Shown in pieces: positions 6,390 through 24,887 of a DNA stretch of 64,000 bases. This stretch comes from a virus. The stretch covers positions 55,817-119,816 of IMG/VR virus record IMGVR_UViG_3300017782_000002; one strand, written 5' to 3'. Position 1 is the stretch's first letter. Each line of letters opens with the position of its first letter. A program made the position numbers and the translations under genes. The notes under the pieces are model-generated. The model saw nothing but the letters and a program-made list of their open reading frames with translations, was not told the DNA's origin and made no database searches.

Positions 6390-9300
6390 ATGGCAAAGAA
6401 GAAAAAACAACAGCAACAACCAAAACCTAAAAGTACTTCTAGTGTTTTTACAAATACTCCTATGAAGGGTATGATTAAAGACACACATGATGGCTACCTT
6501 AATAAAGATAATTGGTCACATGCTAGAAATGCTATAAATAATTCTGTTGATGGTGATACTGGAGTTATAGGTAATGAGCCTGCAAACATACTGTGTGCTA
6601 ACATACCTTATACTGTTATAGGTGGAATACATCTTTATGGTGATAAATGGATAATTTACTCAACAGATAATGAAGGTACATTAAATGATAAGTCTTCTGA
6701 GATAGGAGAGTTTGATGACAGCACATGTACATATAATACATTAATAAATGATTCTTGTTTAAACTTTCACAAAGACCATTTAGTTATAGGTGTTGCAAAA
6801 GAAAATTTTGATTGTTCATGGCAAGTATATTGGGATGATGGTAACAATCCTTCAAGAACTATTAATTTAAGTGATATACCTTTTAAGAAAGAAATAGCAC
6901 CATCAAGTACACCTGCATGTACTATATATCAAAATATTACACCATTACAACTTGACTGTGAAAAAATTAGATTAGCTCCATTATTAGATACACCAAATTT
7001 AGAACTAACAAAAGCTAGTGAGGGAGGACAACTACCTAACGGTATGTATCAAGTTTTTATTGCATACTCAATCAATGATCAAATAATAGGTGATTACTTG
7101 GGTGCATCTAACATGCAATCATTATGGTCTCATGAAAATAATCAGGGTTCTTTAAATCTAAAAATATCTGGAGTAGATAAAGAGTTTGAATGGATGCAAG
7201 TTGTAGTTAGAACAAGAGTACACAACGGTTTTACATCATATGTTTTAGGTTATTATAGTACTGAAACTACAAATCTTAACATTGATTATTTAGATCCTGA
7301 TCTTACAAAAGTCAAATCATCAAGATTACTTTTAAGAAATCCTGCATATGAAAAATCATCAGGAATGTTTGAAGTAAATGATTATTTAATTAGAGCACAA
7401 CCTACAGAACAATTTGATTTTAATTATCAACCTCTTGCAAATAATATAAAAACAGAATGGGTTTCTGCTACTTACCCAGCAGAATACTATAGAGAAGGAG
7501 GAAACAAGCCTACATTTCTAAGAGATGAAGTATACACATTCTTTATAAGATTTATATACAACACAGGAGAAAAATCAAAATCATACCATATACCAGGAAG
7601 ATCTGCAACAGGAAATGAAGTTTCTTTAGATTTAACAGCTAACTCATGGGATGGTGTAGCTCTTCAATACAAAACACAAAACACTGCAACATTTACAGCA
7701 ACTACAAATGTAGTTTTACCTGACGGAGGAATTATACAATCCTACGGTGATATGGCATATTGGGAATCTGGTGAAAAATATCCAGCTACTGATCCTATAA
7801 GGTACAATAATGGAAGTATGGATTTATGTGGTATGCCTATTAGACATCACAAGATGCCTGATGAAAATACACACGTTACAACTAGACTGTCAACAAATGG
7901 TGCAGGAGGTACAGGTTCTACACATATACAAATAATAGGTGCTCAATTTTCTAATATTGCTGCACCGTTAGATAATAGTGGAAATGTAATACCTAATATT
8001 GTAGGATATGAAGTATTAGTTGGTAATAGAGACGGTAACAAATCTATTATTGCAAAAGGTATTATAAGGAATATGATGTCATACGAAAGGTATGAACATA
8101 AAAGAAGTTTACAAGCAGGGGCAGGTACAAACTATTACAGTCCTCTTGGTGATATACAAAATAGCCCAACATCATTTAATGGTGGTGGACCAATTGCTGC
8201 TGCAAATGCAGATATTGCTGCAGCTACTCCTAATGCTTTAGGTGAAACAGATATACAATATGGATTGATGGCAAACTATCCATATAATGATATGGGTATT
8301 GACCCTTATCTAATATACAGAGGTAATGGTGACGTGCGTGTAGAAGAAGCTCCTTGGTTAAGTGGTATATTTGGAACAGAACCTATAGAGAGTAATTGGA
8401 TAACAGGAACAGGATCTTTATTAAAGCCTACACAAGATAACAGTATACACATGACTCAAGATAACAGAGGTATGGCTGAGTTTACTTTTGATCATCACAC
8501 ATTCCATTCTCCAGATCTTAACTTTACACACATGTATCTTGCTCCATCTGAGATGGTAGTATATAAAACTTTAATTGGAAAAGCAGAAGGTAACTTTAGA
8601 AAATCTGAAAAACATCCAGGAGCAAAACTATTAAAAAACAAAGCTGTATTAATAGCAGCTATTATTGGAGTTGGTTATGCACTTAACCACATGAGAGGTA
8701 AAAGGAATGTTAAAATAAATACAGCTAGATCACAATCAACAGGGGAAACAATGGCAGTAGGGTCAGGTATGACACCTATGCCAGGTACCGGTACAGCTGC
8801 AGCAGCAGTAAACGTATTATTAAATTTACCAGGAGTTGTTGTTGGTGCTGTAGCAGATATGGCATTTAATACTGTTGTGGATGTAGCTTCTGTATTTGGT
8901 GCTGGTAAATTAGCAAGACAGATTGGTACTCCTATATACCAAATGATTGAGACTGGTACAACAGGACTTATGGCTGGTCATATTGGTCCTAATAAAACTA
9001 TTGAATATGTAGGTAGTGATTTTACAAGTGTGCCTACATTATTTTCAATGATCACGGGTGTACTAACATTCCTTAACTATGTAGCTATAGGAGGAGATAA
9101 GATTATAGATCTTATTCTTAAAATGGTGAACTATCAAGACTATGCTTATAAATATAATAGTCATGGTTTTTATAGTACTTATGTACCTTTTGCAGAAGGT
9201 AACTGTAACAACGCTTGGACAGGGTCAACATGTACAGCTGTATATAGACATCAAATGAAATCTGCAAGATACATAAAACCAGGTCTTCAATTTATGGGAG

Positions 9301-12300
9301 GAACTGCAATAAACAATCTTCACAGACCTTCTACAGTTGTTTTAAATACTAACACTAAAGTTGATTCACCTGGTCATTACGGTTTACAAGATGATTCAAA
9401 ATTTGTTATTGGTGGTGGTCAATGTGCAGGAGATGGTAATCACTCATTAAGTTGGTGGACACCTACTGGTTTAGCAACATCTAATATTTCTGCACATTAC
9501 GTTGGATTAAAAGTAGACAATGATTCACAGTATGGTCAATTAGACAGTATTCTATTTACACCAATGTCACAACCGTTTAAATTTTCTGACTCAGCGGCTG
9601 ATATAGATGCTAATACTAGATTTAGCACAGGACCTTTATTTGGTGGTGACACATACATATCAAGATATACAGAAAAAGTTACAATGCCTTTTTGGTATGA
9701 CTTTATGAAAGACTTACCTGACGGAAGTCCTTTTGATTATAGATATTATTCTAATGTACCTTTCCCAAGATATTGGATGAATACGGAAAAATACCGTATG
9801 GATGAATTTGTAAGACCTTTAACAAATCTTACATTTAATTTTGATGAAGCTTTTCCATCTGACATGTATCACTTAGATCAACCTACTGAAATTGATTGTG
9901 ATGCTGGACTAATTGGTACACAAGATGCAAGTGGGGGTACGGTTGCAAATTATTATGAACCTGGTAACTTCCATTTACAAGTAATAAAAGTTCCAACATC
10001 AGATAACATAATTGCTACTTTAAGTAATAGAATTAAAAGTCCAACGTGGGAAATAGCTGGGGTTGGTAAATCACAATTCATTAATCATCCAGGTGAACAA
10101 TGTTCTTGGTATCTTGCTGCTGGTGTAGACTGTCCTTCTAATCAAGTACCACAACAACCAGTTGAACCACCAAGAAGAAGAGAAGTAGCAATAGGTATTC
10201 AAGGTAGACATAGAAGTCATAACCACTCTACACCATTAATTGATTGGGGTGGAGGTAGTTGTATATCATCTGGTAAAGATGATTGGTATGACTTTGCTAA
10301 TCCTGGAGATGATGTTTCACCACCAAGAACTACAGATATAGATGGTCAAGTAAGAACGTTTAAAGCTTTATATAATTGGAATGAAGGTAAATTTATGTAT
10401 CCTGTAAGTAATGGATTACAAGATAATACTTATGCACATGGTGGTATTATAGGTAATCCTGCTTATAATGCTACATGTCATCATAATGGATATTGTACAA
10501 TGGGTGGAACTTGTACTGCTGCAAACGGTGATCTTACTTCTTTTGCTACTGCGGCAACTTGTACAGCTAACGGAACATGTAGCAATCCAGTATATAATCT
10601 TGGATCTTGTAGTGTTTCAGGTTATACTACATCATCAGGTTGTACTAACGCAGGTGGTGTATGGACTACTGCTCAAGCACTTTGTACAGCTGCAGGTGAA
10701 ACATGGACAGTTAATACATGGTCAGGTGGTTCATTTATTAGTGAATCAGCAAAAACACTTAGAGATTGTAACTTAGCTGGAGGTGCATGGACAGACAGTT
10801 GTATTCCTGAAGATAATCCACAAGATTTTATATTCTATAGTAAAAAACAAAAGAAAAAAGAAAAAGGGTGGTTTTCAGGAACTATCGTACTTGATACAGG
10901 ATCATTCAATATTAACGGTAATGCTACGGATGCTGGTGGTTCAAATAGTGGTAGTTGGACAGACTGTGATGGAGCTGGTGCAAAATTTTGCAAACCGGGT
11001 GATGAAAATAGACTTGCAGGATTAGATCCACAAGATTGTCATAGAAATGTTCACACGTTAGTTACTAAAGGTGGAGCGCCTCCTAAGACTTCAGATATTG
11101 GTGATGATCAAGATAACTATAGTGCAACAATGAATGACAATAGTAATAATCCTGTTAAGAAAACAGGAGGACTTTTTGTTGAAAGCACAGGTTATATGTA
11201 TACACATGTTAGTGGTATACAAGATTTCTTTGTTGAATCAGACATGAATCTTTCATTTAGAGATTGGGAAGACCAACCAAGAAAAAAACATTATGATTAT
11301 TTAGAATATACAGACATACATGAATTATTCCACGTAGATCATATTAAGGGTGATAACTATTATAAGTATGATAAATCTCTTAATACAAGAAGATTCTGGA
11401 CTGCATCTTTTGGTAACATACAAGAAAGATATTATGATCCTTACGTATCTGAAACATGTTTTACTAAATATCCAAAAAGATTATTATACTCTTTACCCTC
11501 TGTTGGAGCACATACAAAAGAATTACAACAGTTTAAAAGAGATGAGAAAGCAGATCATTGGAGAACATTCCTACCAGAAAATTTTAGAGACTTTAAATCT
11601 AAAGTAAATACAATTGTACCAACAGGTAAAACAGGAGCAATAATATTATTTCCTACATTGTCTCCACAATTATTCCAAGGAGTAGACCAATTAAAAATGG
11701 AAAGTTCTGGTAATAAATTAACAATAGGAGACGGTGGTTTATTTAGTCAAGCTTTTCAAAGCATAACAAATTCTAATGTATCTCATGAATATGGATCATG
11801 TGAAAGCGCTAGAAGTGCTGTACAAACACCTGCTGGTTTATTTTATGTATCACAAGCACAAGGTAAAATATTCCAATATGCAGGTAAAGGTTTACAAGCT
11901 ATATCTGATATGGGAATGAAATGGTGGTTTAACAAATACTTACCATCTCAATTATTAAAAGCATTCCCTGGTATAGAAGATTCACCTAGAGCAGTAGATA
12001 ACCCTGTAGTAGCTGCAGGTGTACAATCTATATATGATCCAATGAATGATATTGTATACTTTGCAAAAAGAGATTATAAGCCTCTTGCAGATAAACTTCC
12101 TGATTTATCTTATTTACCTGATGGAAGATTTATGTACTCAGATGCTAGTACACAACAAAGTGTTGAAGTGCATCTTACAGATACAGATTATTTTGAAGAT
12201 ACATCTTGGACAGTTAGTTATGACCCTAAAGCTAAAGCTTGGATTTCATTCCATGACTGGCATCCTGAATTAGCTTTTAATAGCATAAATCATTTCTTAA

Positions 12301-13940
12301 CAACTAAGAAAGGCGTTTCTGCTACACCTATATGTCCTCCTGGATATACATACAGTGCAACAAACAATCAATGTGAAATAGCATCAACTGGTAGTCAAGC
12401 TGCAGCAGTTCTTGTAGATAACATACTTTCAACAATGACATCTTCAGGAAGTAATTGTAAACTTGATGTAGTTGTAGCTGTAGATGTATCAGGTAGTGTT
12501 GGATATGGTAATAGTGTAAATGCTAACCACAGTGCATTAGGTTTAGCGCAAAATCAATTCGTTGCAGATTTAATAACAAACTTTACACCAGCTATGAACG
12601 CAGGTGAATTACAATTTGGTATAAGCAAATGGTCTTCAACTTATGAGCTTATTCAATCTGGTGGTAAATGGATGACAAACAATCCTGCTGATGCTACTGC
12701 TGCAACTGATAACATATTTGCTTGTTGTGGAGGTGGTACAACGTTTGAGCAAGGATTAGATGGAGGTTTAGACTTATTAAGTAAAGCTCAGTCAGATACT
12801 GCAAATTGTAGTTTAGGTGATAGAACAGGACAATCCGGATATAAAAAAGTATTATTATTTATTACAGATGCAGGAGGTTCATGGTCTAGTACAGCTTTAA
12901 CAACAGCTGAAGCAGCATGGCCAACTACAGATATATACGGTATACGTACAGTTGCTGGATCAGGTGCTCTAAGTGGAGCAAATGAACTAAGTTATAGAAC
13001 TACTTTACAACCTGGCTGTGGAACTAGTACTACAACAACAGGGGGAGATTACAACTATACAGCAGCTGGAAATGTTGCATCTTTATCTACTGTAGCGACT
13101 ACAATCACTAGTCAAGTATGTTCTCCACCACCAGTTTGTACATGTCCAACAGGTTACACTTTAGTAGGAGCATGTGACGGTGTAACTACACCTAACTGCA
13201 CACAGACAACATGTAGTTGTTCAGGTTTTCCAGGATATGGTACAGCAAGTCTTGTTGAATCAGGAACGTGCGGATCACCAACAGATCCATTAATGTGTAC
13301 TTGGAATTATGCTGACACAGTAACAGCAAACTATAATGTAGGAGGATTATGGAGACATAACTCAAGAACAGACAAGTTTGCTAATTTCTATGGTATTGAT
13401 TATCCTTGGGAAATAGATCTTATTGAAACATCTGGACAACAAGTAACTACTCTTAGAAGTGTTGAGTATATGTTAGAATCATATGTATATAAAAATGACG
13501 GTAGAGATAGATTCCATGTTTTAGATTTTAACTTTGATGAGGCTGAAATTTACAACTCTGAACAAACATCAGGTTTACTTAAATTAGATCTTTCACCTAA
13601 AAACAATGTGCCTTTAATAACAACTTATCCTATTATAAATGCAAATGATATAAGTATACTTTATAGTAAGGAAGAACAAAAATATAGATTTAATCAGTTC
13701 TGGGATGTTACAAATGACAGAGGAGAATTTTCTGGTGCACAAAACTCTATATATATAACAAAACTAAATGGTTATATAAGAGATTTAAATATAGCTAATA
13801 TCAACCTTTTAAAATCATCTTTTGAAAGAAAGAAATTTAGACACTATTATAATCATGTAGTGCTAAGAAGACTAGTATCTGGTGACAAGAAAATGTTACT
13901 TAGATTGGAAAACACAAAACTTAACGCATCACAAAGATAA
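6390..13940 (+). CDS. Tail stabilisation/muzzle-like protein (2516 aa) with inserted Cys-rich and vWA domains
   Basis: Beta-propeller-like N-terminus; C-terminal TPAGLFYVSQ...KIFQY, WTVSY...WISFHDWHP and LWRHN segments as in crAss-like/P22 gp10-type tail stabilisers; vWA MIDAS DVSGS at 12483. Confidence 0.7.
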   Translation: MAKKKKQQQQPKPKSTSSVFTNTPMKGMIKDTHDGYLNKDNWSHARNAINNSVDGDTGVIGNEPANILCANIPYTVIGGIHLYGDKWIIYSTDNEGTLNDKSSEIGEFDDSTCTYNTLINDSCLNFHKDHLVIGVAKENFDCSWQVYWDDGNNPSRTINLSDIPFKKEIAPSSTPACTIYQNITPLQLDCEKIRLAPLLDTPNLELTKASEGGQLPNGMYQVFIAYSINDQIIGDYLGASNMQSLWSHENNQGSLNLKISGVDKEFEWMQVVVRTRVHNGFTSYVLGYYSTETTNLNIDYLDPDLTKVKSSRLLLRNPAYEKSSGMFEVNDYLIRAQPTEQFDFNYQPLANNIKTEWVSATYPAEYYREGGNKPTFLRDEVYTFFIRFIYNTGEKSKSYHIPGRSATGNEVSLDLTANSWDGVALQYKTQNTATFTATTNVVLPDGGIIQSYGDMAYWESGEKYPATDPIRYNNGSMDLCGMPIRHHKMPDENTHVTTRLSTNGAGGTGSTHIQIIGAQFSNIAAPLDNSGNVIPNIVGYEVLVGNRDGNKSIIAKGIIRNMMSYERYEHKRSLQAGAGTNYYSPLGDIQNSPTSFNGGGPIAAANADIAAATPNALGETDIQYGLMANYPYNDMGIDPYLIYRGNGDVRVEEAPWLSGIFGTEPIESNWITGTGSLLKPTQDNSIHMTQDNRGMAEFTFDHHTFHSPDLNFTHMYLAPSEMVVYKTLIGKAEGNFRKSEKHPGAKLLKNKAVLIAAIIGVGYALNHMRGKRNVKINTARSQSTGETMAVGSGMTPMPGTGTAAAAVNVLLNLPGVVVGAVADMAFNTVVDVASVFGAGKLARQIGTPIYQMIETGTTGLMAGHIGPNKTIEYVGSDFTSVPTLFSMITGVLTFLNYVAIGGDKIIDLILKMVNYQDYAYKYNSHGFYSTYVPFAEGNCNNAWTGSTCTAVYRHQMKSARYIKPGLQFMGGTAINNLHRPSTVVLNTNTKVDSPGHYGLQDDSKFVIGGGQCAGDGNHSLSWWTPTGLATSNISAHYVGLKVDNDSQYGQLDSILFTPMSQPFKFSDSAADIDANTRFSTGPLFGGDTYISRYTEKVTMPFWYDFMKDLPDGSPFDYRYYSNVPFPRYWMNTEKYRMDEFVRPLTNLTFNFDEAFPSDMYHLDQPTEIDCDAGLIGTQDASGGTVANYYEPGNFHLQVIKVPTSDNIIATLSNRIKSPTWEIAGVGKSQFINHPGEQCSWYLAAGVDCPSNQVPQQPVEPPRRREVAIGIQGRHRSHNHSTPLIDWGGGSCISSGKDDWYDFANPGDDVSPPRTTDIDGQVRTFKALYNWNEGKFMYPVSNGLQDNTYAHGGIIGNPAYNATCHHNGYCTMGGTCTAANGDLTSFATAATCTANGTCSNPVYNLGSCSVSGYTTSSGCTNAGGVWTTAQALCTAAGETWTVNTWSGGSFISESAKTLRDCNLAGGAWTDSCIPEDNPQDFIFYSKKQKKKEKGWFSGTIVLDTGSFNINGNATDAGGSNSGSWTDCDGAGAKFCKPGDENRLAGLDPQDCHRNVHTLVTKGGAPPKTSDIGDDQDNYSATMNDNSNNPVKKTGGLFVESTGYMYTHVSGIQDFFVESDMNLSFRDWEDQPRKKHYDYLEYTDIHELFHVDHIKGDNYYKYDKSLNTRRFWTASFGNIQERYYDPYVSETCFTKYPKRLLYSLPSVGAHTKELQQFKRDEKADHWRTFLPENFRDFKSKVNTIVPTGKTGAIILFPTLSPQLFQGVDQLKMESSGNKLTIGDGGLFSQAFQSITNSNVSHEYGSCESARSAVQTPAGLFYVSQAQGKIFQYAGKGLQAISDMGMKWWFNKYLPSQLLKAFPGIEDSPRAVDNPVVAAGVQSIYDPMNDIVYFAKRDYKPLADKLPDLSYLPDGRFMYSDASTQQSVEVHLTDTDYFEDTSWTVSYDPKAKAWISFHDWHPELAFNSINHFLTTKKGVSATPICPPGYTYSATNNQCEIASTGSQAAAVLVDNILSTMTSSGSNCKLDVVVAVDVSGSVGYGNSVNANHSALGLAQNQFVADLITNFTPAMNAGELQFGISKWSSTYELIQSGGKWMTNNPADATAATDNIFACCGGGTTFEQGLDGGLDLLSKAQSDTANCSLGDRTGQSGYKKVLLFITDAGGSWSSTALTTAEAAWPTTDIYGIRTVAGSGALSGANELSYRTTLQPGCGTSTTTTGGDYNYTAAGNVASLSTVATTITSQVCSPPPVCTCPTGYTLVGACDGVTTPNCTQTTCSCSGFPGYGTASLVESGTCGSPTDPLMCTWNYADTVTANYNVGGLWRHNSRTDKFANFYGIDYPWEIDLIETSGQQVTTLRSVEYMLESYVYKNDGRDRFHVLDFNFDEAEIYNSEQTSGLLKLDLSPKNNVPLITTYPIINANDISILYSKEEQKYRFNQFWDVTNDRGEFSGAQNSIYITKLNGYIRDLNIANINLLKSSFERKKFRHYYNHVVLRRLVSGDKKMLLRLENTKLNASQR

Positions 13941-16900
13941 TGAATAATAAAGATATATTAGGATATAGTGATGGTTCTCCTTACAGCAGTGAGCCTTTTA
14001 TAGATATTAATACACCTAACGGACTTATAGATATGTCAAACACAGGAAGACCAATATTAGCAAACGGTGTAGAGCTTGCTCCTTATTCTGGTTTACATAA
14101 TATGGGCACAACTAATGTAAGAGAAATACCATTAGATAAATTTCAAGGTCCTTTAAGATTAGGTGAAGTTGGTAGAAAATTAACAAACTTTTTTAAACCT
14201 AGAAATATTTTTAACTTCAGTAAAACTCCTATGACTCCTATGCTTACTAATAAGAGCTTTACTAAATTTGGAGATCCAGGTGATGTAAGACAATATAACT
14301 TAGGTGATTGGACAAACTATATAAATGATGTAAATAATTTACAAAGACCTGCATTACCTTATAGTCCTGTACAAACTAGAAGTCTTTCTATAGGTAATGC
14401 TTTAGTTAACAATACAGATAAAGCAGGTAATATAAAATTATCTACACTACAAAATTTTACAAATAACTTAGATAGTAAAGTTACAGGAGCACAAGTACAA
14501 GCAGACAAACTATTGTTACAAAGTACAATAGATGATTTAAAAATAACTAACCCAAGTCTTACGGATAAAAGCAAGATACCTTATTCATTATTTGAATCAG
14601 AAGTAAATAAAAATATAATACAGTTTCAACCTAAATTAGTAAATACACATGCTCATGTAGGGATGGATGCATTAGGTTACAAAATAAGAAAAAGTGAAGG
14701 AATTGGAGCTGTTACAAACAAAACAATACTTTGGCAAAATAATCAAATAGGTAATCCTATTAGTGATTCTCATTTTCCTACAAATGAAAAGGGACCAACT
14801 TACGGACATACAAGATTTTTTAGTACAGACAAAAAACTTTTTAACATATTAGAATTACAATCAGATGAATTTCAAAGACCTTTACTAGCTAAACTTAAAA
14901 AAGCTGATATACGTATTATTAGTGCTCAAAACAAAAAGAAGGAAAAACAAAACTTAATAGATAATTGGTCTCCAAATGAAAATAGCATAATGCCTCCAAA
15001 CCAACAGTGGGCAAATTATAAGTCACAAGCAAATGAAGAAATAAAAAGATATGATGATCAAATTAAAAATGCAGAATATGATAGAGATCAAATTGGAGGT
15101 TTAATATCAACTAGATCAGCTAATACAAATAAACAAATAAATGCATTAGAAAAAAATCACATGTCAAGGATGTTTGCAGAAACAGTTAAGTATGCAGCAG
15201 ACAATGGTTTTCAAACTGTAAGGTACCCTCACCAAAAAACAGTAGCTGTTATTGAAGGTTTTACACCAAGTATTGAAGATAAAGATGTATTAGTAAATCC
15301 TTGGACACGAAGTAATACAGCTGATTTTGATGTGGCTATTAATGAGTTAAGTACAGGTAATACTTATGGTCATACTACAGTAGCTAAAAAACACGGACCT
15401 TTTGTAAATATACCTGATGAAGTAAATTCAGTATACTCTATGGGTAGCAACCCAAGAATAACACATGAAGAAAAAGGTTGGGCTCCAAAAAAAGATAGAA
15501 AGCCTAGAATGAATGCTTATGCAGATGATGAAAGTTATAGACAATCATTGTATGATGATGGATGGACTGATGCAGAAATTGCTGATTATAACAGAAATAT
15601 AGGTCACTGGAAAAATCAACATATATCTTTAGATAATAATGGTAAATACACTATGACTGTAAGAAATGCAGATGGTGATCAATATAATACTGCTCCAGGT
15701 TGGGCTTCTCCAAGCATTGAAATACCAGAAGAAACTGCAAAGAATTTACAAGGAGGTTTATATCATATACAAGAGAATGGTTCTTGGCTTTATGTTGGTA
15801 AAGACAAAGATGCTGTTACTAAATATACACAGGATATAAGAGAAATAAATCATAAAAAAATAGAGCAGCCAGAAAGGCCGGTATTTAACATAGATGACTA
15901 CGGGGGTGTAAAATATAAAAAAGACAAAAATAAATTTCTTAAAGATGGTGTTACAGAAAATCCTAATTATAATAAACGTGCAAAAAATAGCAAAGGTGAA
16001 CTTACTATGGAAAGAAAATGGTCTGATCAACAAACTATTCTAAGAAAATATAATGAAAAGGATTTTAAAAAATATTTAAAATCTACTTTTGGTAAAGATG
16101 CAACTTACAAAGTAGTCTATGATGAAAAAGGATATGCTTGGTATGAGTTTGATTTACCTGTTAATTGGAAAGCAGGTGAAGCTCAAATTAAAGCTTATAA
16201 GCAAGGTGGTGAAATAGGAGGATATAGATTATCTAAGTTTAATGATGGAGGTGGAGTAGATTATTCTGACGCAGAAGAAGTTACTATTAACGGACAAACT
16301 TATTACAGACATAAAGTAAAACCTACTCAAGGTAAAGGTGAAATAAGTTCAAAGTATGGTATATGGAATCAAGAAGCTGTCTTAAATTCAATTAATAGTA
16401 AATTTACTAATATAAAAGATCAACCTGATTATTCTAAAATGGTTAATAGAATGTGGGAAGGTGATTACGTATTAGTAGGAGGTCCTGAATTTGAACCACA
16501 TGTACAGTATACAGAAGACAGAGGATCATATGCTAATTCATTTGAAAGCATTCCGCAAGAAGAACTATGGTCTGCAATAACTGCTATTGGACATATTGAA
16601 ACAGGCAGCAAAGTAAAATATAAAAGACCAGAAGGTAGAAAATATAAAAACACAACTGATGACCCACAATACTTAGCAGACAATCATCCATTTACAGGTA
16701 TATATGAAAGTGGTATGGATAATGCATATGGCTTTGTAAGTAGTGCTAATGCTTTAGGTAGATTTGGCATTAAAGAAGTTCTTGTAGACAAATATGCTAA
16801 AGACATATTAGGATATAAAGAAGGAGAAGATTGGAGAGGTCAGTATCTTAAGAATAAAGAAGACCAACGTAAATTAATGAAACATTTAATTACGCAAGTT

Positions 16901-17890
16901 TATCCTGATGAGCTTGTCCAAATAAGACACTTTCATCCAGAGACTTCTGCACAGTATTCAGATTTTGAATTATTAGCAGCTATACACAAAGGTGGTCAAG
17001 GTAACGTTAAAAAACAATTGTCAGAGGGTCAATTTTCAGAACAAGCAGTTGTAGGTGATATATCAATGGGAGGATATACAAAAAGAATTATGAACTATCT
17101 AGATCCTGATTTAGATATATCTAACTCATCTTTCTTTATGAAAAATAATCCTGCACACAATTTCTTTAAAAACAAACCTAAATATAAGTTTGGAGGTTCT
17201 ACAAATAAAGAAGAAGTTAGAAATGAAATTATAGCTGACATGCTAGACAATGGAGCTTTCTTACCAAAGTTTAAACAAGGATCAGAAAAAAATATAGAAG
17301 GTGTTTTAGGTAACTATAGAATTAATAAGTCTTATGATAATAAAAGACAATTACCTTTTATAGAATATAATAGTAACTCTGAGTCTTTAGAAAACAATAG
17401 AATTTATTATGATAAAGATGATGCTGGTTATGATAACTTTAATATTATTGATGTATATACACAAGAAAATGATCAAAAGAAAAGACACAATAGAATAAAA
17501 AATATAATTTATAAATATGATCAAGGGTTACAATTAAATCCTATTGAGTTAGAAACAATGAGAGAATTAGGATTATTAAACAATCAACCTAGAAGACAAA
17601 AAACAACAGAACAAGTAGTTGTTAAACCTGTTAACAATGGTGTTGATATTCCTTTAGAAGATATTAATGCTTCAAAAGATCTTTACAATAAAAAAGACGG
17701 TAACAATAAAGGTATATCACTAAAACATCAAATATCTATTTATTCTAAATTAATAAATGGTATCTTTGACAAAGATGAAAAACTAAAAAAAGTTAAAAGG
17801 GTATATGATAGACTAAACAGTCTATATTATAATGATGCAAAGGCTAGTAAGATGACTGTGTTAGACTACATGAAGTCATTAAATAATTAG
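13940..17890 (+). CDS. Virion cargo/ejected polyvalent protein with a lytic transglycosylase-like domain
   Basis: Located between the muzzle and vRNAP genes; IGHIETG...ALGRFGI...LAAIHKGGQGNV...YTKRI at ~16570-17095; YKQGG, FNDGG and YKFGG linkers. Confidence 0.6.
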   Translation: MNNKDILGYSDGSPYSSEPFIDINTPNGLIDMSNTGRPILANGVELAPYSGLHNMGTTNVREIPLDKFQGPLRLGEVGRKLTNFFKPRNIFNFSKTPMTPMLTNKSFTKFGDPGDVRQYNLGDWTNYINDVNNLQRPALPYSPVQTRSLSIGNALVNNTDKAGNIKLSTLQNFTNNLDSKVTGAQVQADKLLLQSTIDDLKITNPSLTDKSKIPYSLFESEVNKNIIQFQPKLVNTHAHVGMDALGYKIRKSEGIGAVTNKTILWQNNQIGNPISDSHFPTNEKGPTYGHTRFFSTDKKLFNILELQSDEFQRPLLAKLKKADIRIISAQNKKKEKQNLIDNWSPNENSIMPPNQQWANYKSQANEEIKRYDDQIKNAEYDRDQIGGLISTRSANTNKQINALEKNHMSRMFAETVKYAADNGFQTVRYPHQKTVAVIEGFTPSIEDKDVLVNPWTRSNTADFDVAINELSTGNTYGHTTVAKKHGPFVNIPDEVNSVYSMGSNPRITHEEKGWAPKKDRKPRMNAYADDESYRQSLYDDGWTDAEIADYNRNIGHWKNQHISLDNNGKYTMTVRNADGDQYNTAPGWASPSIEIPEETAKNLQGGLYHIQENGSWLYVGKDKDAVTKYTQDIREINHKKIEQPERPVFNIDDYGGVKYKKDKNKFLKDGVTENPNYNKRAKNSKGELTMERKWSDQQTILRKYNEKDFKKYLKSTFGKDATYKVVYDEKGYAWYEFDLPVNWKAGEAQIKAYKQGGEIGGYRLSKFNDGGGVDYSDAEEVTINGQTYYRHKVKPTQGKGEISSKYGIWNQEAVLNSINSKFTNIKDQPDYSKMVNRMWEGDYVLVGGPEFEPHVQYTEDRGSYANSFESIPQEELWSAITAIGHIETGSKVKYKRPEGRKYKNTTDDPQYLADNHPFTGIYESGMDNAYGFVSSANALGRFGIKEVLVDKYAKDILGYKEGEDWRGQYLKNKEDQRKLMKHLITQVYPDELVQIRHFHPETSAQYSDFELLAAIHKGGQGNVKKQLSEGQFSEQAVVGDISMGGYTKRIMNYLDPDLDISNSSFFMKNNPAHNFFKNKPKYKFGGSTNKEEVRNEIIADMLDNGAFLPKFKQGSEKNIEGVLGNYRINKSYDNKRQLPFIEYNSNSESLENNRIYYDKDDAGYDNFNIIDVYTQENDQKKRHNRIKNIIYKYDQGLQLNPIELETMRELGLLNNQPRRQKTTEQVVVKPVNNGVDIPLEDINASKDLYNKKDGNNKGISLKHQISIYSKLINGIFDKDEKLKKVKRVYDRLNSLYYNDAKASKMTVLDYMKSLNN

Positions 17891-17906
17891 ATAATGTGCT
17901 TGATTT

Positions 17907-17918
17907 TTAGTATATTAT
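17907..17918 (+). promoter_or_regulatory. Putative phage late promoter, TTAGTATATTAT
   Basis: Intergenic one-mismatch copy of the motif, about 30 nt before ATG 17948. Confidence 0.45.
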
Positions 17919-17947
17919 AAATGTGACAGTATAACTGTGTAAGAACT

Positions 17948-20900
17948 ATGGCAAGAAAATCAAAAAATAAAAAACAACAAACTTTTAATGTTTACCCATA
18001 CCTAGGTGGGTATCAACACTTTATGAGGAATGGCGGTGCTTTACCTAAATTTGAAGAACAAGGTGAAACAGAAGAAACTCAGCAACAAAAAATGAAAAGG
18101 TTGTATAAAGAACAATTTGGTGATAGAGATAAGTTTAGTTATCTTGGAGGATTAGGTAGAGTAGGCTTGTTTGGCAACATGATACAAGGAGTAGGAAAGT
18201 TAGGTAATACTATAGGTGGGGCTTTCAAAAAAGAAAGTTATGACCCAGGAGGAAAATATTCAAAATTTGACCAACAAGGAAATTTAAGATTTGGTAGATC
18301 TAGTTTTACAAACACTACTGATGAAAACGCAATGCTACATGGAGATAACTTAAAAAAGTATCTCAGCATGTCAAAAAAAGAAAAAGAAGAATGGGTTAAT
18401 AGTGGTGGACGTAATTCTGATTTATGGTGGTCATTAGATGATATGACTTATGGTAAACGTAACTTCATGGAAAGAAATGAAGACGGTTTAGCAAAATGGG
18501 ATGGTAGTAACTATAGAGTTGCTAAAGCAAGAAACGAAATGTTTAAAGATCCTGACACAGATGAAAGTTTGTTTAGTGTAAAACAAAAAAACAAAGATGG
18601 CACGTTTACTTATTTTAATGAAGATGGTACTGTAAACTATAATAAAGACGGGCAAACTCAATATGATGTAATAGAAGAAAGCACTGGTCCAGGAGGTTTA
18701 GCTGATGTCAATGCTGGTATAATGAATTTTGATTTTGATGTAGAAGGAGATAATAAATTAGTAAGCTTTGATCAAAATACAAATCAAAAAATTACTACAA
18801 CAGATCCTGAAGGTAATGTGACTGAAACAGAAAATAAAGTAAGTGGAACAACTCCTTATGATCCAAATAAAATTTATGGACCTTACACAAAAGAATCTGA
18901 AACAGTAGAATCAAGACAAGAAAGAATAAATAGAGAATTAGAAGAAAACAGTGGGAATGATGAAACTTTAAGATACGGTAAAGAGCTTAGAGGCATGCTT
19001 ACAAGATATGATGCAGGTGGTGATGCTGCTGATAATATGAATGACAGCACTGCATACTTTGATCATGATAGAACTGACGTACCATTCTATGAGCATGGTG
19101 GACCACATGAAGAAGGTGAAACAAATTATCCTGGTCAAGTACAGCTACCTGGAGACATGGTTGATCCTGCAGCTAATTTTACACCTCCTACTAGTGATCC
19201 TTTTGCACCATTACCAGGGTTTAACGGACCTGTAAATCTAGAAGCAGAATCAGAAGAGATTGCTAATTTTGAAAGACCAAACTTTGGTACAAGAATAAAA
19301 AACTTTCTACAAGGTAACAATGATTTAAACAAACCACCTACTCAAGCTGATGTTATGACAGATGACATGGTGGAAAACATAGATAAACAAGTAGATCCAA
19401 ATGCTCCAAGAGTATTAGACCCTACTAGTCAGAATGATATGCAGGGTGTAGCTACTGAAGAAGAAAAAGACATGGGTATTGATGTTAACTATGGTGATAC
19501 TAAAGGTCAACAGATACTTAATAAAGCAAAAGAAATTAGTAAGACAGGTGCTATTGGTGCTGGCTTAGATATAATTGGTGGAGTATCAGAATTTGCTGTA
19601 GATAAATTAACACCAGTTCTATCAAGTTTTGCAGAAGGTCAAGATAGACATGAGAATAAATTAAAATCTAGATCTAGAAGTGTAGAAGATTTTGCACCTA
19701 TGATGGAAGAAACTGCAGGTACAGGTAACAGAGGTTTTTATGATGTAAATAAAGGAGGCTATGGAGATGACCTATATGGTACAGGAGAAATATATGGGCA
19801 AGCACAACAAGGTAAAGAATTAATGAATGAACAACCTGCTCCAGTAAGTATAAATGATTACATGAAAACAAACATGGATGTGTTAAGATTTAATAAAGAG
19901 CATTTAGATAAACAGAAATCTTTCTTAGGTGATTACAAAAATGGTGGAGCTTTACCAAAGTACCAAGCTCTTGGTCAAGTAAGTAATACTAGAAAATTAT
20001 TTAATTATATAAATCCATTTAAATTTAAACTTGCTGATAATGTATTGTTTAGTGCAGGATCAAAAACAGAACCTTTTACTAAAATAAACATGTTGCAGAC
20101 AGGGGCAAATAAAGAAAACAACATAGGATTTTTAAATTTAAAATATGACAATCCATTAGGTGTTAGTTCTGAAATGAATAGTGTACGTGAAGAGTTTAGA
20201 AAAATGGGTATTGCTACTGCGCTTTATGACGAAGGAGTAAAACAATCTATTAAGCAAGGTTATCCTGGTCTTATAAGTGGTGAGACTTTAGATAGTCCAG
20301 AAGCTACAATAAACATATGGAAAAATTTTGATCTTGAAATAATGAATCCTGATAGAACTAGAATGGATAAGATTAAAGGGAGAAATCAATTTGTAGATGC
20401 TGGTGATACTGATTTTAGTTCTCTTATAGTAGATGGAAAATATACAGGTAGTCCAGTAAGATTAAAAGGACTAAATAAAAAAGGTAAAACAAAATTAAGT
20501 GAGTTTAGAAGTTTCTTTGATGAATTAAGTGCTGAAGATAAAATGATATATCAAATGAATGCACAAAAAGTAGGTGGATTTAAATGGGACATGCATTCAC
20601 CTCTTGGTAGAAGTATATTAAATGGTTTTAGAACTAAAAAAGTTATAGGTGATGGTAAAACATTTACAGAATATAACAGACAGCCAATATACATAGCAGG
20701 AGGTTTAGGTGCTTACAGTCTAATGTCTGGTGACGGATTAGATTCAGAATTACAAGAAAAAGAAAAACAAATATATTTAGAGAAGAGAGCTAAAGAAGAA
20801 GGAATGACTGTAGAAGAATTTAAAAAATCTATAGATGATACTTCACGTATAATGAAAACTGATCCTAAACTATATGAATATTATAAAGATTCTGCAGATG

Positions 20901-21997
20901 ATTTGTATAAAGCAGGAGGTCAACCTGGGTTTTGGGCAAACGTTCATGCAAAAAGAAAAAGAGGAGAATCTCCTGATAAAAGTAAAGTCTCTTCAGAAAC
21001 AGCAAAAAGATTTAATTTAAAATACGGAGCTGAGATACCTGAGTTTTTAAGAGGTGGAGGAACAGCAGCTGAAGGAGCAGTTTTATGTGATGCTTATGAT
21101 AAACCTGTAGATCCTGAAAAAGCTTGGGCTGCTGATACTGTAAATAATTATAAAGGACCTGGTATGAAATATGGTGGAACTTTACCTAAATTCCAGGGAC
21201 TAAAAAGAAGTGAGGTTAAAAATTACTCTAAAGCTTGGAATACAAATAAAAGAGACACTAAAGATATTATAAGTACATTAATGCAAGACGGATATAACTC
21301 AGAAACAGATACAATTATATCAAGTTATCATCCTTCTATGCCTATAGAAGATCAGCGTCATGGTCAAAGAATGCATAACCTTGCTACAAATGTTAATTCA
21401 TCAGGTCTTTTACCTTTTATGCATTCATCAAGTGCTAATTTTGCAGGTGAACTAGGTGCTACGTATCCATTTGTTGATGCAACAGGTTATGGTTCATACT
21501 TAGCAGTACCAAAAATGAATGAAGGTGGAAACTGGTTTAGTAAAGCAGTAGACTATGGACAAACAGCATTGGGAGCTGCAGGACTTACTCCTGGTCCAGT
21601 TGGTTTAGGTGCAGATGCTATTAATACAGGTATATCAGGAATTAGAGCTGGTTATAATAAATTTATTGGAGATGATGAATCAGCTAAAAAGCATACAGAA
21701 AACATGGCATTAAACGCTACGTCAATGATACCAGGGCCTGCAGGATGGGCAGCAGGTGCATCAGGTTTGGCAAAAGATATGGCAGGTTATGCTGGAGCAA
21801 TAGATGATAACAAGAGTATAACTACACAAGTAGCAGATTCTATGCAAACAAAACCTTCTCAACCAACTATGGCTGTAAAAGGAACTGGTGCAATAGACAA
21901 TACTGCTAAACTTGGAGGAGAACAAGAAGCTGAAATAGATATGGATTTATATTATGAGTTAATGAAAGCGGGAGCTGATATTAAAATTTTAGGATAA
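17948..21997 (+). CDS. Virion cargo polyvalent protein with GNAT and pre-toxin-TG-like cassettes
   Basis: VREEFRKMGIATALY (GNAT motif A) near 20183-20227; repeated GGALPK[FY]/GGTLPKF linkers; C-terminal LGAAGLTPG...ADAIN...ALNATSMIPG. Confidence 0.6.
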   Translation: MARKSKNKKQQTFNVYPYLGGYQHFMRNGGALPKFEEQGETEETQQQKMKRLYKEQFGDRDKFSYLGGLGRVGLFGNMIQGVGKLGNTIGGAFKKESYDPGGKYSKFDQQGNLRFGRSSFTNTTDENAMLHGDNLKKYLSMSKKEKEEWVNSGGRNSDLWWSLDDMTYGKRNFMERNEDGLAKWDGSNYRVAKARNEMFKDPDTDESLFSVKQKNKDGTFTYFNEDGTVNYNKDGQTQYDVIEESTGPGGLADVNAGIMNFDFDVEGDNKLVSFDQNTNQKITTTDPEGNVTETENKVSGTTPYDPNKIYGPYTKESETVESRQERINRELEENSGNDETLRYGKELRGMLTRYDAGGDAADNMNDSTAYFDHDRTDVPFYEHGGPHEEGETNYPGQVQLPGDMVDPAANFTPPTSDPFAPLPGFNGPVNLEAESEEIANFERPNFGTRIKNFLQGNNDLNKPPTQADVMTDDMVENIDKQVDPNAPRVLDPTSQNDMQGVATEEEKDMGIDVNYGDTKGQQILNKAKEISKTGAIGAGLDIIGGVSEFAVDKLTPVLSSFAEGQDRHENKLKSRSRSVEDFAPMMEETAGTGNRGFYDVNKGGYGDDLYGTGEIYGQAQQGKELMNEQPAPVSINDYMKTNMDVLRFNKEHLDKQKSFLGDYKNGGALPKYQALGQVSNTRKLFNYINPFKFKLADNVLFSAGSKTEPFTKINMLQTGANKENNIGFLNLKYDNPLGVSSEMNSVREEFRKMGIATALYDEGVKQSIKQGYPGLISGETLDSPEATINIWKNFDLEIMNPDRTRMDKIKGRNQFVDAGDTDFSSLIVDGKYTGSPVRLKGLNKKGKTKLSEFRSFFDELSAEDKMIYQMNAQKVGGFKWDMHSPLGRSILNGFRTKKVIGDGKTFTEYNRQPIYIAGGLGAYSLMSGDGLDSELQEKEKQIYLEKRAKEEGMTVEEFKKSIDDTSRIMKTDPKLYEYYKDSADDLYKAGGQPGFWANVHAKRKRGESPDKSKVSSETAKRFNLKYGAEIPEFLRGGGTAAEGAVLCDAYDKPVDPEKAWAADTVNNYKGPGMKYGGTLPKFQGLKRSEVKNYSKAWNTNKRDTKDIISTLMQDGYNSETDTIISSYHPSMPIEDQRHGQRMHNLATNVNSSGLLPFMHSSSANFAGELGATYPFVDATGYGSYLAVPKMNEGGNWFSKAVDYGQTALGAAGLTPGPVGLGADAINTGISGIRAGYNKFIGDDESAKKHTENMALNATSMIPGPAGWAAGASGLAKDMAGYAGAIDDNKSITTQVADSMQTKPSQPTMAVKGTGAIDNTAKLGGEQEAEIDMDLYYELMKAGADIKILG

Positions 21998-22001
21998 AAT
22001 T

Positions 22002-24887
22002 ATGAAAGTAAAAATAGGAAATTTACCAGAAGGTTTTAAAATTGTTAATGGCAAAGTTGTAAGAACAATGAAAGCAGGTGGTACTGTTAACAATACTTTA
22101 GGACCAATGAACAGAGAAGATGCTAACCTTGAAGCAGAAAAAGGTGAAACAGCTTTGACAGACCTTACTAATGATGGTTCTTTTGAACTATATAATATAG
22201 GAGGTAAAAGACATTATGATGGTGGTACTCCATTAAATCTACCAGAACAAAGTTTTGTGTTTTCTGACACACGCAAAATGAAATTTACAACAGAAGAATT
22301 AAAACAATTAGGTATTGATTCTAAAAAGAAAATGACTCCTGCAAAAGTATCTAAAAGATTTCCTTTAAATAAATACATTGAAATTTTAGAAAATCCTGAT
22401 TCAGATAAAATAGCTGTAGAAACTGCAGAGGATATGTTAAACAAAAACAAAGTAAAATTATCTCAAATAGCTTTCTTACAAGAACAAAAAAAGAAATTTG
22501 CTGACGGAGTACCTTTAGCTGCATATCCTTATATGATAGAAAACGGAATAAACCCACAAGAGTTTGAAGCAAAACTACAACAAGGGCAACAGCAAATGGC
22601 AATGGGTCCTGATATGAACGCATTACAACAATTTACAGGAGGCCCACAAATGAGTGTAGGTGGAGGTACAGATAACCCTGGCTTTAGAGCATTACCTGAT
22701 TTTGTACAATCTAAAATATTAAAGAATGCTGGTATGGGTGGAGAAGAAACACATACAATGCCAGATGGTACAGTACACCCTGGAGCAACACATGAAGAGT
22801 ACATGGCTATGATGCAACAAGGGCAAAGTAATATGTACAAAATGGGAGGATCAGCTATATGCCCTACGTGTGGTAAAAAATTACCATGCGGGTGTAAATA
22901 TAAAATGGGGGGATCCCCTTTTGAAGAAAACCCTCTTAAAAGATTTACTGAAGGTGGTGCACCTGAAGAAATGTTAGGAATGCCATCAAGACAAGGTAGG
23001 TTATCTGATAGTCAAATTGCTTTGCAGAACATCATGATGTATAGACAAAAGCTTATGGATGAGTATGAATCTACTGCAGCATACGTAAATGATAATCCTA
23101 ATGTCTTAGCAGATCCTGAAAAAGCTAATGAATTAAAAGCATCTATACAAACAATGGAGACTCAGTTGCGTGAAATAGATATACAAACACAATCTATACA
23201 ACAGAGTATGATGCAACAAAGCTTGCAAGTAAATCCTTTTGAAGGTATGCGTGGTGTAGAGCCGCAACAACAAATGGCTCAATTTGGTAAAGAATTAACT
23301 GGATCAGATGCTTGGGGTTATGGTGGAGATGATGCAGATGGTAATCCTATTATTGGTAGTAGTGAACCTGTACAAGAAACATATAATCCAAAGCAAACTG
23401 GTTATGAATCTCATGCAAAAGCATTTGATATTATGTCTAGTAAAGATTTTGATCCAGTTAGAAAACTTTGGTTAGATAAATATAAAGAAGAAGCTGCTAA
23501 GAATACTACAGGAAAAAATAGATGGGTTTCAAAAAAATCAGATGGAACAGCATATACGGACGCTGAATTATTTCATATATTTAATAGAATGAATCAATAC
23601 CTTTCTGCTGTAAATGCTGGAGAAGGTAGAAACCCAGGTGAAGTTTTTGGAAAAAATGCAGCAGGTAATACAGATGAACTAGCTATTAAATATGGATATG
23701 GTAATGCAAAACCTACACAAGAAGAGATTAGAATCTTTCAAGGTATGTATAAATCTTTAGATAATGCAAAAATTGAAGATGAAACAGGTTTATTAGATCA
23801 AATTAATACTACACCTATAGGACAAGAACAAGAAGGAATGAAGAATGCCCTTGGTGAAAATGTATCTGATGTAGATGGTGCATTAGGTCACACAACAGGA
23901 GGCCAGTTTTATAGAGCAGAAAATCCAGATGAAACCAGTACTACTAATACTGAAGTGACAAATGAATGTGATGCAGAAACTAGGGCTAAAATCATGCAAG
24001 AATGTAAAGAGTTAAAATTAAATTTTGATCAAAAAACATGTAGTTGTGTACCTAAGCCTGATGATTTTGAAACACCTAAAACTCCTTTGTATGAAACATT
24101 CCCACAGGATGATCTTATTGTAGCAACTAAGTCAGCACAGTTAGCAGGATTAAAACAAATAAACCCTGTACTAGAACCTAGTGTTGATCCAACATTAATG
24201 AACCCTATGTATGTAGATCCTAGACAACAGCTGTCTGTTATAGAGGCTACTGCAGCAGAAGCTATTAGACAAAACCCAGATCAAGCTACAGCTATTATGA
24301 GTAAAATGCAAGATGCGTCTGAAGGAATTATTAATAAACATGAAAATCTAAATACAAAGATTTATAATAATGCACAAGCAATAAACGTACCTTTGATTAA
24401 TGATGCTGCTGAAGCTAATGCTTCAAAATTTAAAACCTTTATGGATGAAAGTAATGCTTCTGCAGAAAATTTCCAAGTTGCAAATATGGAAATGACAGAC
24501 AACTTAGTAAATGCTGTTAATGATCAAATGAGTAATGCGGATCAACAGTACATGGAAAATTTAAAAAATCCACAATTCTGGTATAGTCCGCAAGCACATA
24601 ATATTGAATACTATAATCCAAAAGGTTTTGACGGTAACACTGGGCAACCTACAACTGATAGCATGTTAGCTTATGAGGAGTATAAAGCTTTAGCTGATAA
24701 AGATCCAGTTTTTGCTGAGAAGTATTTTGATAAAATATATAAACCTAAGAAAAATCCTGCAGATGAAGTTAATATAACTAGAAACAATGCGCAAGAAACA
24801 GTAAAGTATGGAAAAGAAACTTCACGTAAAAGAGACTTACTTAGAAGCAAGAGAGAATTAAGAAAATGGATTTTAGGATACAAATAA
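22002..24887 (+). CDS. Virion cargo protein (crAss-like cargo family)
   Basis: N-terminal EAEKGE...GGKRHYDGGT...FVFSD...TPA segment resembles conserved crAss-like cargo proteins; MKAGG, YKMGG x2 and FTEGG linkers. Confidence 0.6.
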   Translation: MKVKIGNLPEGFKIVNGKVVRTMKAGGTVNNTLGPMNREDANLEAEKGETALTDLTNDGSFELYNIGGKRHYDGGTPLNLPEQSFVFSDTRKMKFTTEELKQLGIDSKKKMTPAKVSKRFPLNKYIEILENPDSDKIAVETAEDMLNKNKVKLSQIAFLQEQKKKFADGVPLAAYPYMIENGINPQEFEAKLQQGQQQMAMGPDMNALQQFTGGPQMSVGGGTDNPGFRALPDFVQSKILKNAGMGGEETHTMPDGTVHPGATHEEYMAMMQQGQSNMYKMGGSAICPTCGKKLPCGCKYKMGGSPFEENPLKRFTEGGAPEEMLGMPSRQGRLSDSQIALQNIMMYRQKLMDEYESTAAYVNDNPNVLADPEKANELKASIQTMETQLREIDIQTQSIQQSMMQQSLQVNPFEGMRGVEPQQQMAQFGKELTGSDAWGYGGDDADGNPIIGSSEPVQETYNPKQTGYESHAKAFDIMSSKDFDPVRKLWLDKYKEEAAKNTTGKNRWVSKKSDGTAYTDAELFHIFNRMNQYLSAVNAGEGRNPGEVFGKNAAGNTDELAIKYGYGNAKPTQEEIRIFQGMYKSLDNAKIEDETGLLDQINTTPIGQEQEGMKNALGENVSDVDGALGHTTGGQFYRAENPDETSTTNTEVTNECDAETRAKIMQECKELKLNFDQKTCSCVPKPDDFETPKTPLYETFPQDDLIVATKSAQLAGLKQINPVLEPSVDPTLMNPMYVDPRQQLSVIEATAAEAIRQNPDQATAIMSKMQDASEGIINKHENLNTKIYNNAQAINVPLINDAAEANASKFKTFMDESNASAENFQVANMEMTDNLVNAVNDQMSNADQQYMENLKNPQFWYSPQAHNIEYYNPKGFDGNTGQPTTDSMLAYEEYKALADKDPVFAEKYFDKIYKPKKNPADEVNITRNNAQETVKYGKETSRKRDLLRSKRELRKWILGYK

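Follow-up and report, generated by a model that had tools for sequence, protein, structure and literature searches.

What does a short glycine-rich peptide mark when it recurs along three consecutive genes of a crAss-like phage? Crassviruses rank with the most abundant phages of the gut and the ocean, and the crAss001 structure raised the question of how such particles stow, order and eject several megadaltons of cargo protein. The peptide lies in a 64,000-nucleotide (nt) stretch, here called the window, which covers bases 55,817-119,816 of a 119,816-bp IMG/VR virus record (IMGVR_UViG_3300017782_000002; rated complete by CheckV). The phage is uncultured and known from this metagenomic record alone. 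The three open reading frames (ORFs), all on the plus strand like every feature described here, are cargo genes A (13940..17890; protein P0001, 1316 amino acids (aa)), B (17948..21997; P0002, 1349 aa) and C (22002..24887; P0003, 961 aa). Judged from sequence and gene position, they probably encode cargo proteins (also called ejection or "polyvalent" proteins) that are packed in the particle of a marine crAss-like phage and injected. A first-pass annotation of the window had proposed that the genes are built as cassettes separated by a linker that acts as a packaging tag or a protease site. We confirm the recurrence and the cassette reading below, but not the mechanism. For the latter we tentatively rank an uncut hinge or docking handle, doubling as a recombination seam, above a Gly-Gly processing site, which we regard as a lesser though real possibility, and both above a passive linker or recombination scar, which seems improbable.

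All motif instances named in the first-pass annotation are present where it had placed them, and counts against shuffled sequences and the rest of the window confirmed their enrichment in the three ORFs. The short form [YFM]xxGG occurs 19 times in the 3,628 aa of these ORFs, compared with 3.2 +/- 1.9 in shuffled sequences (1,000 shuffles, maximum 10) and 15 copies in the remaining 16,018 aa of the window. The stricter form [YM][KR]xGG was found 9 times (0.26 in shuffled sequences) and once in the rest of the window, and GGxLPK[FY] 3 times (0.00 in shuffled sequences) and not at all elsewhere in the window. ORF 17948 is the only gene of the 119.8-kb genome in which the full form occurs. Because the three proteins are fairly glycine-rich (7.1-10.9%) and GG itself is over-represented in them (43 vs 28), we considered a chance or compositional artefact. 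However, the observed counts were reached in 0 of 1,000 composition-preserving shuffles, and the Gly-rich muzzle protein (9.1% Gly) and ORF 51175 (10.3% Gly) are not enriched. Together with the motif-profile search described below, the shuffle counts refute this explanation, to which we give practically no credence.

The motif as first written does recur but is too short. From 127 unique instances in homologues, its full form is Phi-[KR]-x-G-G-x-L-P-K-[F/Y/A]-Q-x-G, in which Phi is M, F or Y, and GG-S-LPKAQ-x-G is the commonest form over the wider phage set. It consists of two halves, a module-end (aromatic or Met, Lys or Arg, x, Gly, Gly) that is often followed by a module-start (x-Leu-Pro-Lys-[Phe/Tyr/Ala]-Gln-x-Gly). 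At most junction sites, conservation is higher at the glycines than in the flanking residues (e.g., GG 0.85-0.89 vs 0.42-0.46), and the Leu, Pro, Lys and Gln residues are 64-100% conserved over deeply diverged phages. The codons of the motif vary synonymously among copies (GGC GGT, GGT GGA and GGA GGT; CCT/CCA; AAA/AAG), implying selection on the peptide and not on the DNA, and an explanation as a DNA repeat was ruled out on this basis.

Not all 19 copies behave as joints. Within a confidently folded domain, YNIGG (22191) is part of a strand, and YDPGG (18239) and YIAGG (20690) showed no junction behavior. AQFGK and VKYGK, which had been counted as linker copies, do not belong here, as both fall under a second recurring motif, [KRQ]-[YF]-G-[KAST]-E. 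In its longer form, [KRQ]-[YF]-G-[KAST]-E-[LIT], this second motif is found at 18971, 21020, 23280 and 24804 (RYGKELR, KYGAEIPEF, QFGKELTG and KYGKETSR), with two of the four copies 8-12 residues upstream of PhixxGG. In relatives, KYGSELPKAQ-x-G stands in place of KYGGSLPKAQ-x-G.

We compared P0001, P0002 and P0003 with 19, 36 and 183 homologues, respectively, all of them metagenomic and several from Tara Oceans samples. The three proteins are cassette mosaics from which homologues differ by whole modules, and the module boundaries in homologues coincide with the motif. P0002 falls into homology blocks at aa ~1-25, 36-385, 386-662, 664-986, 987-1032, 1033-1072, 1073-1189 and 1190-1349, and the ends of its high-scoring segment pairs (HSPs) with relatives (aa 385, 667, 1033, 1067-1084 and 1187-1198) fall at motif copies. 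At the site of YEHGG (the second copy), P0019 carries an extra ~335-aa module between two motif copies, which P0014 lacks. A module beginning LEFDENG occupies different places in five proteins and is motif-flanked each time, and the P0002 block at aa 1084-1194 (copy 3) recurs at 68-88% identity in the otherwise unrelated proteins P0034, P0035 and P0037. P0036 has N- and C-terminal parts of the P0003 type but the GNAT-like module of P0002, indicating that paralogous cargo genes exchange modules. Proteins of the P0003 family have one insertion hot-spot between conserved N-terminal (aa 1-216) and C-terminal (from ~aa 300) parts, which is where the copies at 217, 279, 300 and 315 cluster.

An all-against-all BLAST of 177 proteins placed these breakpoints on a quantitative footing. 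For HSPs of at least 70% identity, 35% of internal ends lie within 5 aa of a motif (5.6% at random) and 50% within 10 aa (10.5% at random). For HSPs of at least 30% identity, the corresponding values are 12% (4.3% at random) and 18% (8.0% at random). Thus, the sharper the homology break, the more often it falls at a motif. Lack of enrichment and boundaries lying elsewhere were among the findings that the first-pass annotation had named as speaking against its cassettes; what we see is enrichment and coinciding boundaries.

The clustering of breakpoints could be explained by a generic flexible linker that tolerates insertions and whose DNA offers microhomology for exchange, i.e., a recombination seam with no specific partner. 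The copy number, which scales with the number of inserted modules, fits this explanation, as does a cysteine knuckle cassette of cargo C that is flanked by duplicated YKMGG. There is also an analogy in the short conserved motifs that flank swappable adhesin segments of T-even tail fibers; Tetart, Desplats and Krisch reportedly described such brackets, named His boxes and glycine islands, in 1998. Those motifs are part of the folded structure of adhesins, whereas the cargo junction motifs are in disordered linkers. A passive linker would have no need for the strongly conserved Leu, Pro, Lys and Gln, the synonymous codons vary freely among copies, and the motif is absent from cargo gene D and other genes outside the cargo block, which recombine too. 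We consider this explanation rather unlikely.

Cargo gene B is the motif-richest of the genes and illustrates the arrangement best. A conserved 25-aa N-terminal leader is followed by the first full copy, MRNGGALPKFE (18023..18055). The half-motifs YDAGG and YEHGG, 27 aa apart, follow at 19007..19102, and the second full copy, YKNGGALPKYQ (19934..19966), opens the GNAT-like module (20045..20527; aa ~700-860). The half-motifs YKAGG and FLRGG (20906..21058; GG conservation 0.63-0.89 vs 0.36-0.46 in the flanks) bound a 46-aa basic mini-module, the third full copy, MKYGGTLPKFQ, lies at 21164..21196, and the half-motif MNEGG (21515..21529) opens a Gly/Ala-rich C-terminal module at which HSPs begin (aa 1187-1198). 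The GNAT domain of the first-pass annotation stands only as a weak similarity, with Acetyltransf_1 scores of 21.8 bits in homologue P0019 and 18.5 bits in P0024 against a cut-off of 20.7. The basic mini-module (P0002 aa 987-1037; QPGFWANVHAKRKRGE...) recurs in relatives and weakly matches phrog_11180 and phrog_11470, both of unknown function. The Gly/Ala-rich module (21515-21900; P0002 aa 1190-1320; …ALGAAGLTPGPVGLGADAINTGISG…IPGPAGWAAGASGLAKD…) is mildly hydrophobic and conserved in many cargo-B proteins, P0038 and P0039, and may be a membrane-active or channel-forming part. No IMG/VR relative of P0039 was found.

The gene ends in a conserved C-terminal tail (GGEQEAEIDMDLYYELMKAGADIKILG; 21914..21994; P0002 aa 1323-1349). 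This element of ~25 aa, with the pattern GGE-x-x-ID-x-x-L-Y-x-E-L-x-x-AGADI-x-I-L, is common to otherwise unrelated proteins and ends most of the cargo-B genes inspected; in other clades, its counterpart keeps the pattern but has GY-E-I-E-Y-I. The tail may be a signal for packaging or for docking to the portal. In the closest IMG/VR relative (72% identity), the P0002 orthologue is split into ORFs of 579 and 572 aa with a 4-nt overlap (L001 10001-13455, L019 6542-9996). The split, at ~aa 580 of P0002 and away from the motif, is probably a frameshift or a sequencing error. Homologues P0020-P0025 and P0027-P0033 contain at several places a Cys-bracketed insert, CSDG-x-S-x-T-x-E-x-C-x-x-x-GG-x-W, with weak Pfam matches to Gp10_D3 and Phage-Gp8 (T4 baseplate).

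According to its HSP map and AlphaFold model, cargo C begins with a conserved hairpin and domain, continues through a variable insertion hot-spot (aa 216-320) and a coiled coil, and ends in a C-terminal domain. MKAGG (22068..22082) sits behind a 22-aa leader, and of 21 sequences 90% have its first glycine and 100% its second. The leader itself (22002-22067; P0003 aa 1-22), MKVKIxxLPxGFK..., resembles the LPK[A/F/Y]Q half of the motif, and some orthologues start MKKKVRVKSLPKAQMG. The same element ends cargo A in another clade (...GGSVKRVKIKSLPKNWKTK), so it can sit N-terminally, C-terminally or internally. The folded N-terminal domain (aa 30-200; 22089..22601) holds YNIGG, and the hot-spot (22650..22958) contains MSVGG, YKMGG, YKMGG and FTEGG. 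The Zn-ribbon noted in the first-pass annotation is present in the form of a 12-residue four-Cys knuckle (CPTCGKKLPCGC), which has a copy of the duplicated YKMGG on either side (22836-22913). Of 21 aligned sequences, ~25% have residues in the columns of the first copy (aa 279), and the knuckle looks like a cassette inserted at the motif.

Cargo A is sparser, with half-motifs at 16196, 16238 and 17183 and an LPKFK half at 17261; at the 17183 site, GG is invariant in 16 aligned sequences. A P0001-family profile searched against PDB and Pfam gave no SLT domain, and neither this nor the PT-TG-like domain suggested earlier was confirmed. A degenerate, weakly supported LysM domain follows FNDGG.

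Structure models agree with a beads-on-a-string organization of small domains and short conserved peptides on disordered linkers. The model of P0002 aa 635-1349 is poor (mean predicted local distance difference test (pLDDT) score 42.6). Its five junction copies all have pLDDT <50, and the GNAT-like module is the only part reaching ~55-81. For P0003, aa 1-480 were modeled; aa 30-200 form a confidently predicted domain (pLDDT 86-97) and aa 336-408 a coiled coil, and MKAGG23 (pLDDT <50), MSVGG217, YKMGG279, YKMGG300 and FTEGG315 lie in or beside segments with pLDDT <50. YNIGG64 is a strand inside the folded domain and hence not a joint. A fold search with the P0002 model returned nothing at E <= 0.001, with a few acetyltransferases among the non-significant rows. 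On the question of the portal-binding fold of crAss001 gp45 (425-552), Foldseek and VIA-align searches with the P0003 model gave results dominated by the coiled coil.

The motif is restricted to cargo genes A-C. In deduplicated related loci, the observed/shuffled ratios of [YFMW]xxGG by gene position are 1.6 for the muzzle gene, 2.2, 2.7 and 3.1 for cargo A, B and C, 0.95 for cargo D and 2.0 for the virion RNA polymerase (vRNAP); the ~6-fold enrichment in the analyzed phage is at the rich end among related loci. We searched a motif profile (30 columns, from 31 diverse instances) against 1.84 billion representative proteins and found 111 proteins at E <= 0.001, most of them 800-3,300 aa long with 2-6 copies. 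The sampled genomic contexts of the other matches were, without exception, crAss-like cargo loci of further clades. Among the 26 best matches, a Pfam census found LysM (4), SET (4), SLT (2), YkuD (2) and ART-PolyVal (1). These domain matches place the motif-bearing proteins of relatives among the polyvalent type of injected protein that Iyer et al. 2017 defined (PMC5512222).

We tentatively favor the interpretation that the junction peptide stays uncut, serving as a hinge or docking handle and at the same time as a seam for in-frame recombination; hinge, docking and partner are all inferred. The Gly-Gly would be a hinge by which adjacent modules stay independent of each other and can be threaded through the tail. 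In turn, the LPK[F/Y/A]Q half would be a short handle for a conserved in-particle component (portal, tail barrel, muzzle or another cargo protein), and its recognition would allow the chains to be stowed and to exit in order. With the same peptide, and ~30 nt of similar DNA, at both sides of every module, recombination between related phages would swap modules in frame, which would explain the mosaicism. LPK[A/F/Y]Q is also found at true N-termini behind a basic leader without GG, suggesting that this half can act without cleavage. Tandem copies 15-46 aa apart fit repeated handles better than released products.

The crAss001 virion lends support to an uncut peptide. Proteins of its corresponding gene block were detected in virions, and short cargo segments are documented as docked in 12 copies on the tail barrel, in 6 copies on the muzzle and also on the portal, with no mention of proteolysis (PMC10172136). 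Its cargo proteins C1 (gp45) and C2 (gp46) are encoded at the same position, directly after the muzzle gene and before those for the virion RNA polymerase (Bayfield et al. 2023, PMC10172136), and they are likewise Gly-rich and largely low-confidence or disordered, with basic N-termini. The authors read gp45 as one chain across tail and capsid and mention neither a protease nor cleavage, and the published mass spectrometry, of one excised band and tryptic peptides, cannot exclude cuts (PMC10172136). gp45 has FDTGG (17), FAEGG (260) and FAYGG (559), the latter two just after the resolved tail-bound (214-245) and portal-bound (425-552) segments, which makes crAss001 a ready test case. It lacks the LPK[A/F/Y]Q half, however, and crAss001 has two cargo genes compared with four in the analyzed phage. 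A junction motif and module shuffling were not described for crAss001. BLASTP comparison with gp45 and gp46 gave only E >= 0.4, profiles of 21 and 51-53 sequences gave no significant match, and a Pfam search of the three proteins found no match to the C1 family.

Several observations weigh against an uncut hinge and handle. The structure models are shallow (mean pLDDT 42.6 for cargo B). The docked cargo segments of crAss001 are helical, whereas GG...LP disfavors a helix. The aromatic-Lys before GG is also conserved, for which a plain hinge has no need. An N-terminal leader ending in PhixxGG is present in half of the family, and GG usually precedes the cargo-B tail; the leader and the tail look like removable targeting peptides. 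Finally, HExxH modules are ~19-fold enriched in motif-bearing proteins.

These last observations would fit a proteolytic site. A phage-borne or packaged protease would cut after Gly-Gly, in the head or post-injection, thereby removing the leaders and the C-terminal tail and freeing modules with new N-termini x-LPK[A/F/Y]Q. The protease would most plausibly be a zincin that escapes recognition, for instance the part of the vRNAP fusion around HEAFH or one of the HExxH cassettes in related cargo proteins. PhixxGG was found within the first 35 aa in 50% of 263 family proteins but in only 13% of internal windows, and the conserved cargo-B tail usually stands after GG. HExxH is present in 36 of 102 motif-bearing proteins (P0178-P0279; 1.9 +/- 1.3 in shuffled sequences), often in typical zincin contexts. 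Pfam recognized none of these HExxH modules among the 26 best profile matches scanned. Stand-alone cargo proteins start with a basic leader and LPKAQ-x-G, like the predicted new N-termini, and in crAss001 gp45 the placement of FAEGG and FAYGG just behind the tail-bound and portal-bound segments also fits cutting there. Gly-Gly at P2-P1 is a hallmark of several viral and bacterial processing systems (adenain, African swine fever virus (ASFV) pS273R, ubiquitin-like proteases and C39 leader peptidases). Zincin autoprocessing was predicted for polyvalent proteins by Iyer et al. 2017 (PMC5512222).

Other evidence argues against cleavage. The complete genome has no match at E <= 1 to MPTase-PolyVal (PF18818), C48 (PF02902), C5 (PF00770), C39 (PF03412) or S78 (PF04586), and none of the 23 structural and cargo proteins scanned with Pfam matched a peptidase family. 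With regard to a prohead protease, S78 is unmatched and a 447-aa gene between the portal and capsid genes, like its neighbors, has no Pfam match, with the S77, ClpP and S80 families not included in the search. P0001-P0003, the motif-richest set examined, lack HExxH. The hydrophobic residue is at P5, as opposed to P4 in adenain sites, the P' side (LPK[A/F/Y]Q) is conserved as strongly as the P side, and one site (YEHGG-P) has Pro at P1'. Protein C-termini are not enriched in GG ends (2.7% vs 4.3%), copy number ranges from 0 to 10 among orthologues, and three natural gene fissions, used as a proxy for protein boundaries, all lie off the motif and are frameshift-like. Cleavage would also leave products of merely 15-46 aa; several of these "modules" are too short for effectors, which bears on the hypothesis that interchangeable effectors are released upon ejection. 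With no recognized protease, gene splits away from the motif and no cleavage in the crAss001 paper, the protease site proposed in the first-pass annotation was not confirmed, and we regard it as possible but less probable than an uncut hinge and handle. Its alternative, a capsid-packaging tag, was likewise not confirmed.

Should cleavage occur after all, we would be looking at an undescribed virion polyprotein system of marine crAss-like phages, in which a packaged protease, maybe a minimal zincin, cuts after Phi-K-x-G-G; we hold this to be doubtful. Cutting would then remove head-targeting leaders and tails and free shuffled small effectors and peptides, whose N-termini x-LPKAQ-x-G could themselves be an ejection or docking signal.

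Among known processing systems, and as a lead only, Gly-Gly-X processing (adenovirus protease and ASFV pS273R; clan CE) and C39 double-glycine leaders share with the junction peptide a Gly-Gly after a hydrophobic residue and short leaders ending in GG. The clan CE site (M/I/L)-x-G-G|x has its hydrophobic residue at P4, whereas that of the junction motif is at P5, and the cargo leaders are basic and lack the C39 consensus LSxxELxxIxGG. Gly-Gly-X and C39 systems are not known to have a strongly conserved P' side such as LPKAQ. In phage head maturation, T4 gp21 cuts after L/I-x-E, with capsid-targeting leaders, and phiKZ-like phages cut after S/A/G-x-E. There too, a short motif recurs in packaged internal proteins, with conserved leaders before the first copy, but the motif is different and those phages encode a recognizable prohead protease, none of which was found in the analyzed genome.

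Polyvalent proteins are likewise large, multi-module and thought to be delivered with DNA (Iyer, Burroughs, Anand, de Souza and Aravind 2017, PMC5512222). Relatives of the cargo proteins carry ART-PolyVal, SET, SLT, YkuD and LysM domains and many HExxH modules, and zincin processing was proposed for the class (PMC5512222). In the analyzed genome, by contrast, the MPTase-PolyVal model is unmatched at E <= 1 and there is only one HEAFH, in the vRNAP fusion; effector-type domains in the window amount to the weak GNAT-like and weak LysM-like modules. Iyer et al. describe no inter-module linker motif, with the words linker, glycine and boundar occurring zero times (PMC5512222). Our searches of the accessible literature on LPKAQ-type phage motifs and on proteolysis of Crassvirales cargo found nothing relevant. 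A description of the junction peptide thus appears to be absent from the searchable literature, the polyvalent and cargo proteins themselves being known.

One conserved 13-residue peptide at every cargo joint would be an experimental handle that can be mutated, used as bait for a partner, or looked for in virion proteomics as a site of cleavage. It would explain in-frame exchange of payload modules and provide a sequence signature by which genes for injected proteins could be recognized in uncultured phages of Bacteroidota that yield no Pfam or PHROG match. Pfam and PHROG searches of P0001, P0002 and P0003 gave no Pfam and no meaningful PHROG match, and the three proteins are assigned to the cargo position by the muzzle and ring matches upstream and the vRNAP downstream, as in crAss001. 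Neither tblastn with P0002, P0229 and P0179 nor megablast with the region matched any phage in GenBank.

The surrounding genes follow the crassvirus layout. Genes for a P22-like portal and for a major capsid protein of the crassvirus type are located upstream in the genome. Within the window, ORFs 4825-5499 and 5499-6386 encode crassvirus ring proteins 2 and 1 (Pfam CrAss_Ring_2 and CrAss_Ring_1), just upstream of the muzzle protein gene (6390..13940; 2516 aa; Pfam crAss_MUZ, E 1.7e-24). The ORFs downstream of the muzzle gene encode, in order, 1316, 1349, 961, 1047, 4887 and 1801 aa, and four cargo genes, of which ORFs 13940, 17948 and 22002 come first, thus separate the muzzle gene from that of the giant virion RNA polymerase. 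Cargo gene D (24947..28090; 1047 aa) is conserved and motif-free, its observed/expected ratio of 0.95 being taken over 63 orthologues. The giant cargo-vRNAP fusion (28099..42762; 4887 aa) contains HEAFH at aa 2103 (nt 34405-34419), the only zincin-like (HExxH) motif among the cargo genes. We retrieved 80 related IMG/VR loci via the P0003 family, and all are arranged as muzzle, cargo A, B, C, D and vRNAP. Gene ends are conserved in these loci as well, with a cargo-B tail of the type ...LIAAGADIEIL, a cargo-C start MKVKINKLPxGF...GG and a cargo-D start MATYI...PDYKFLS.

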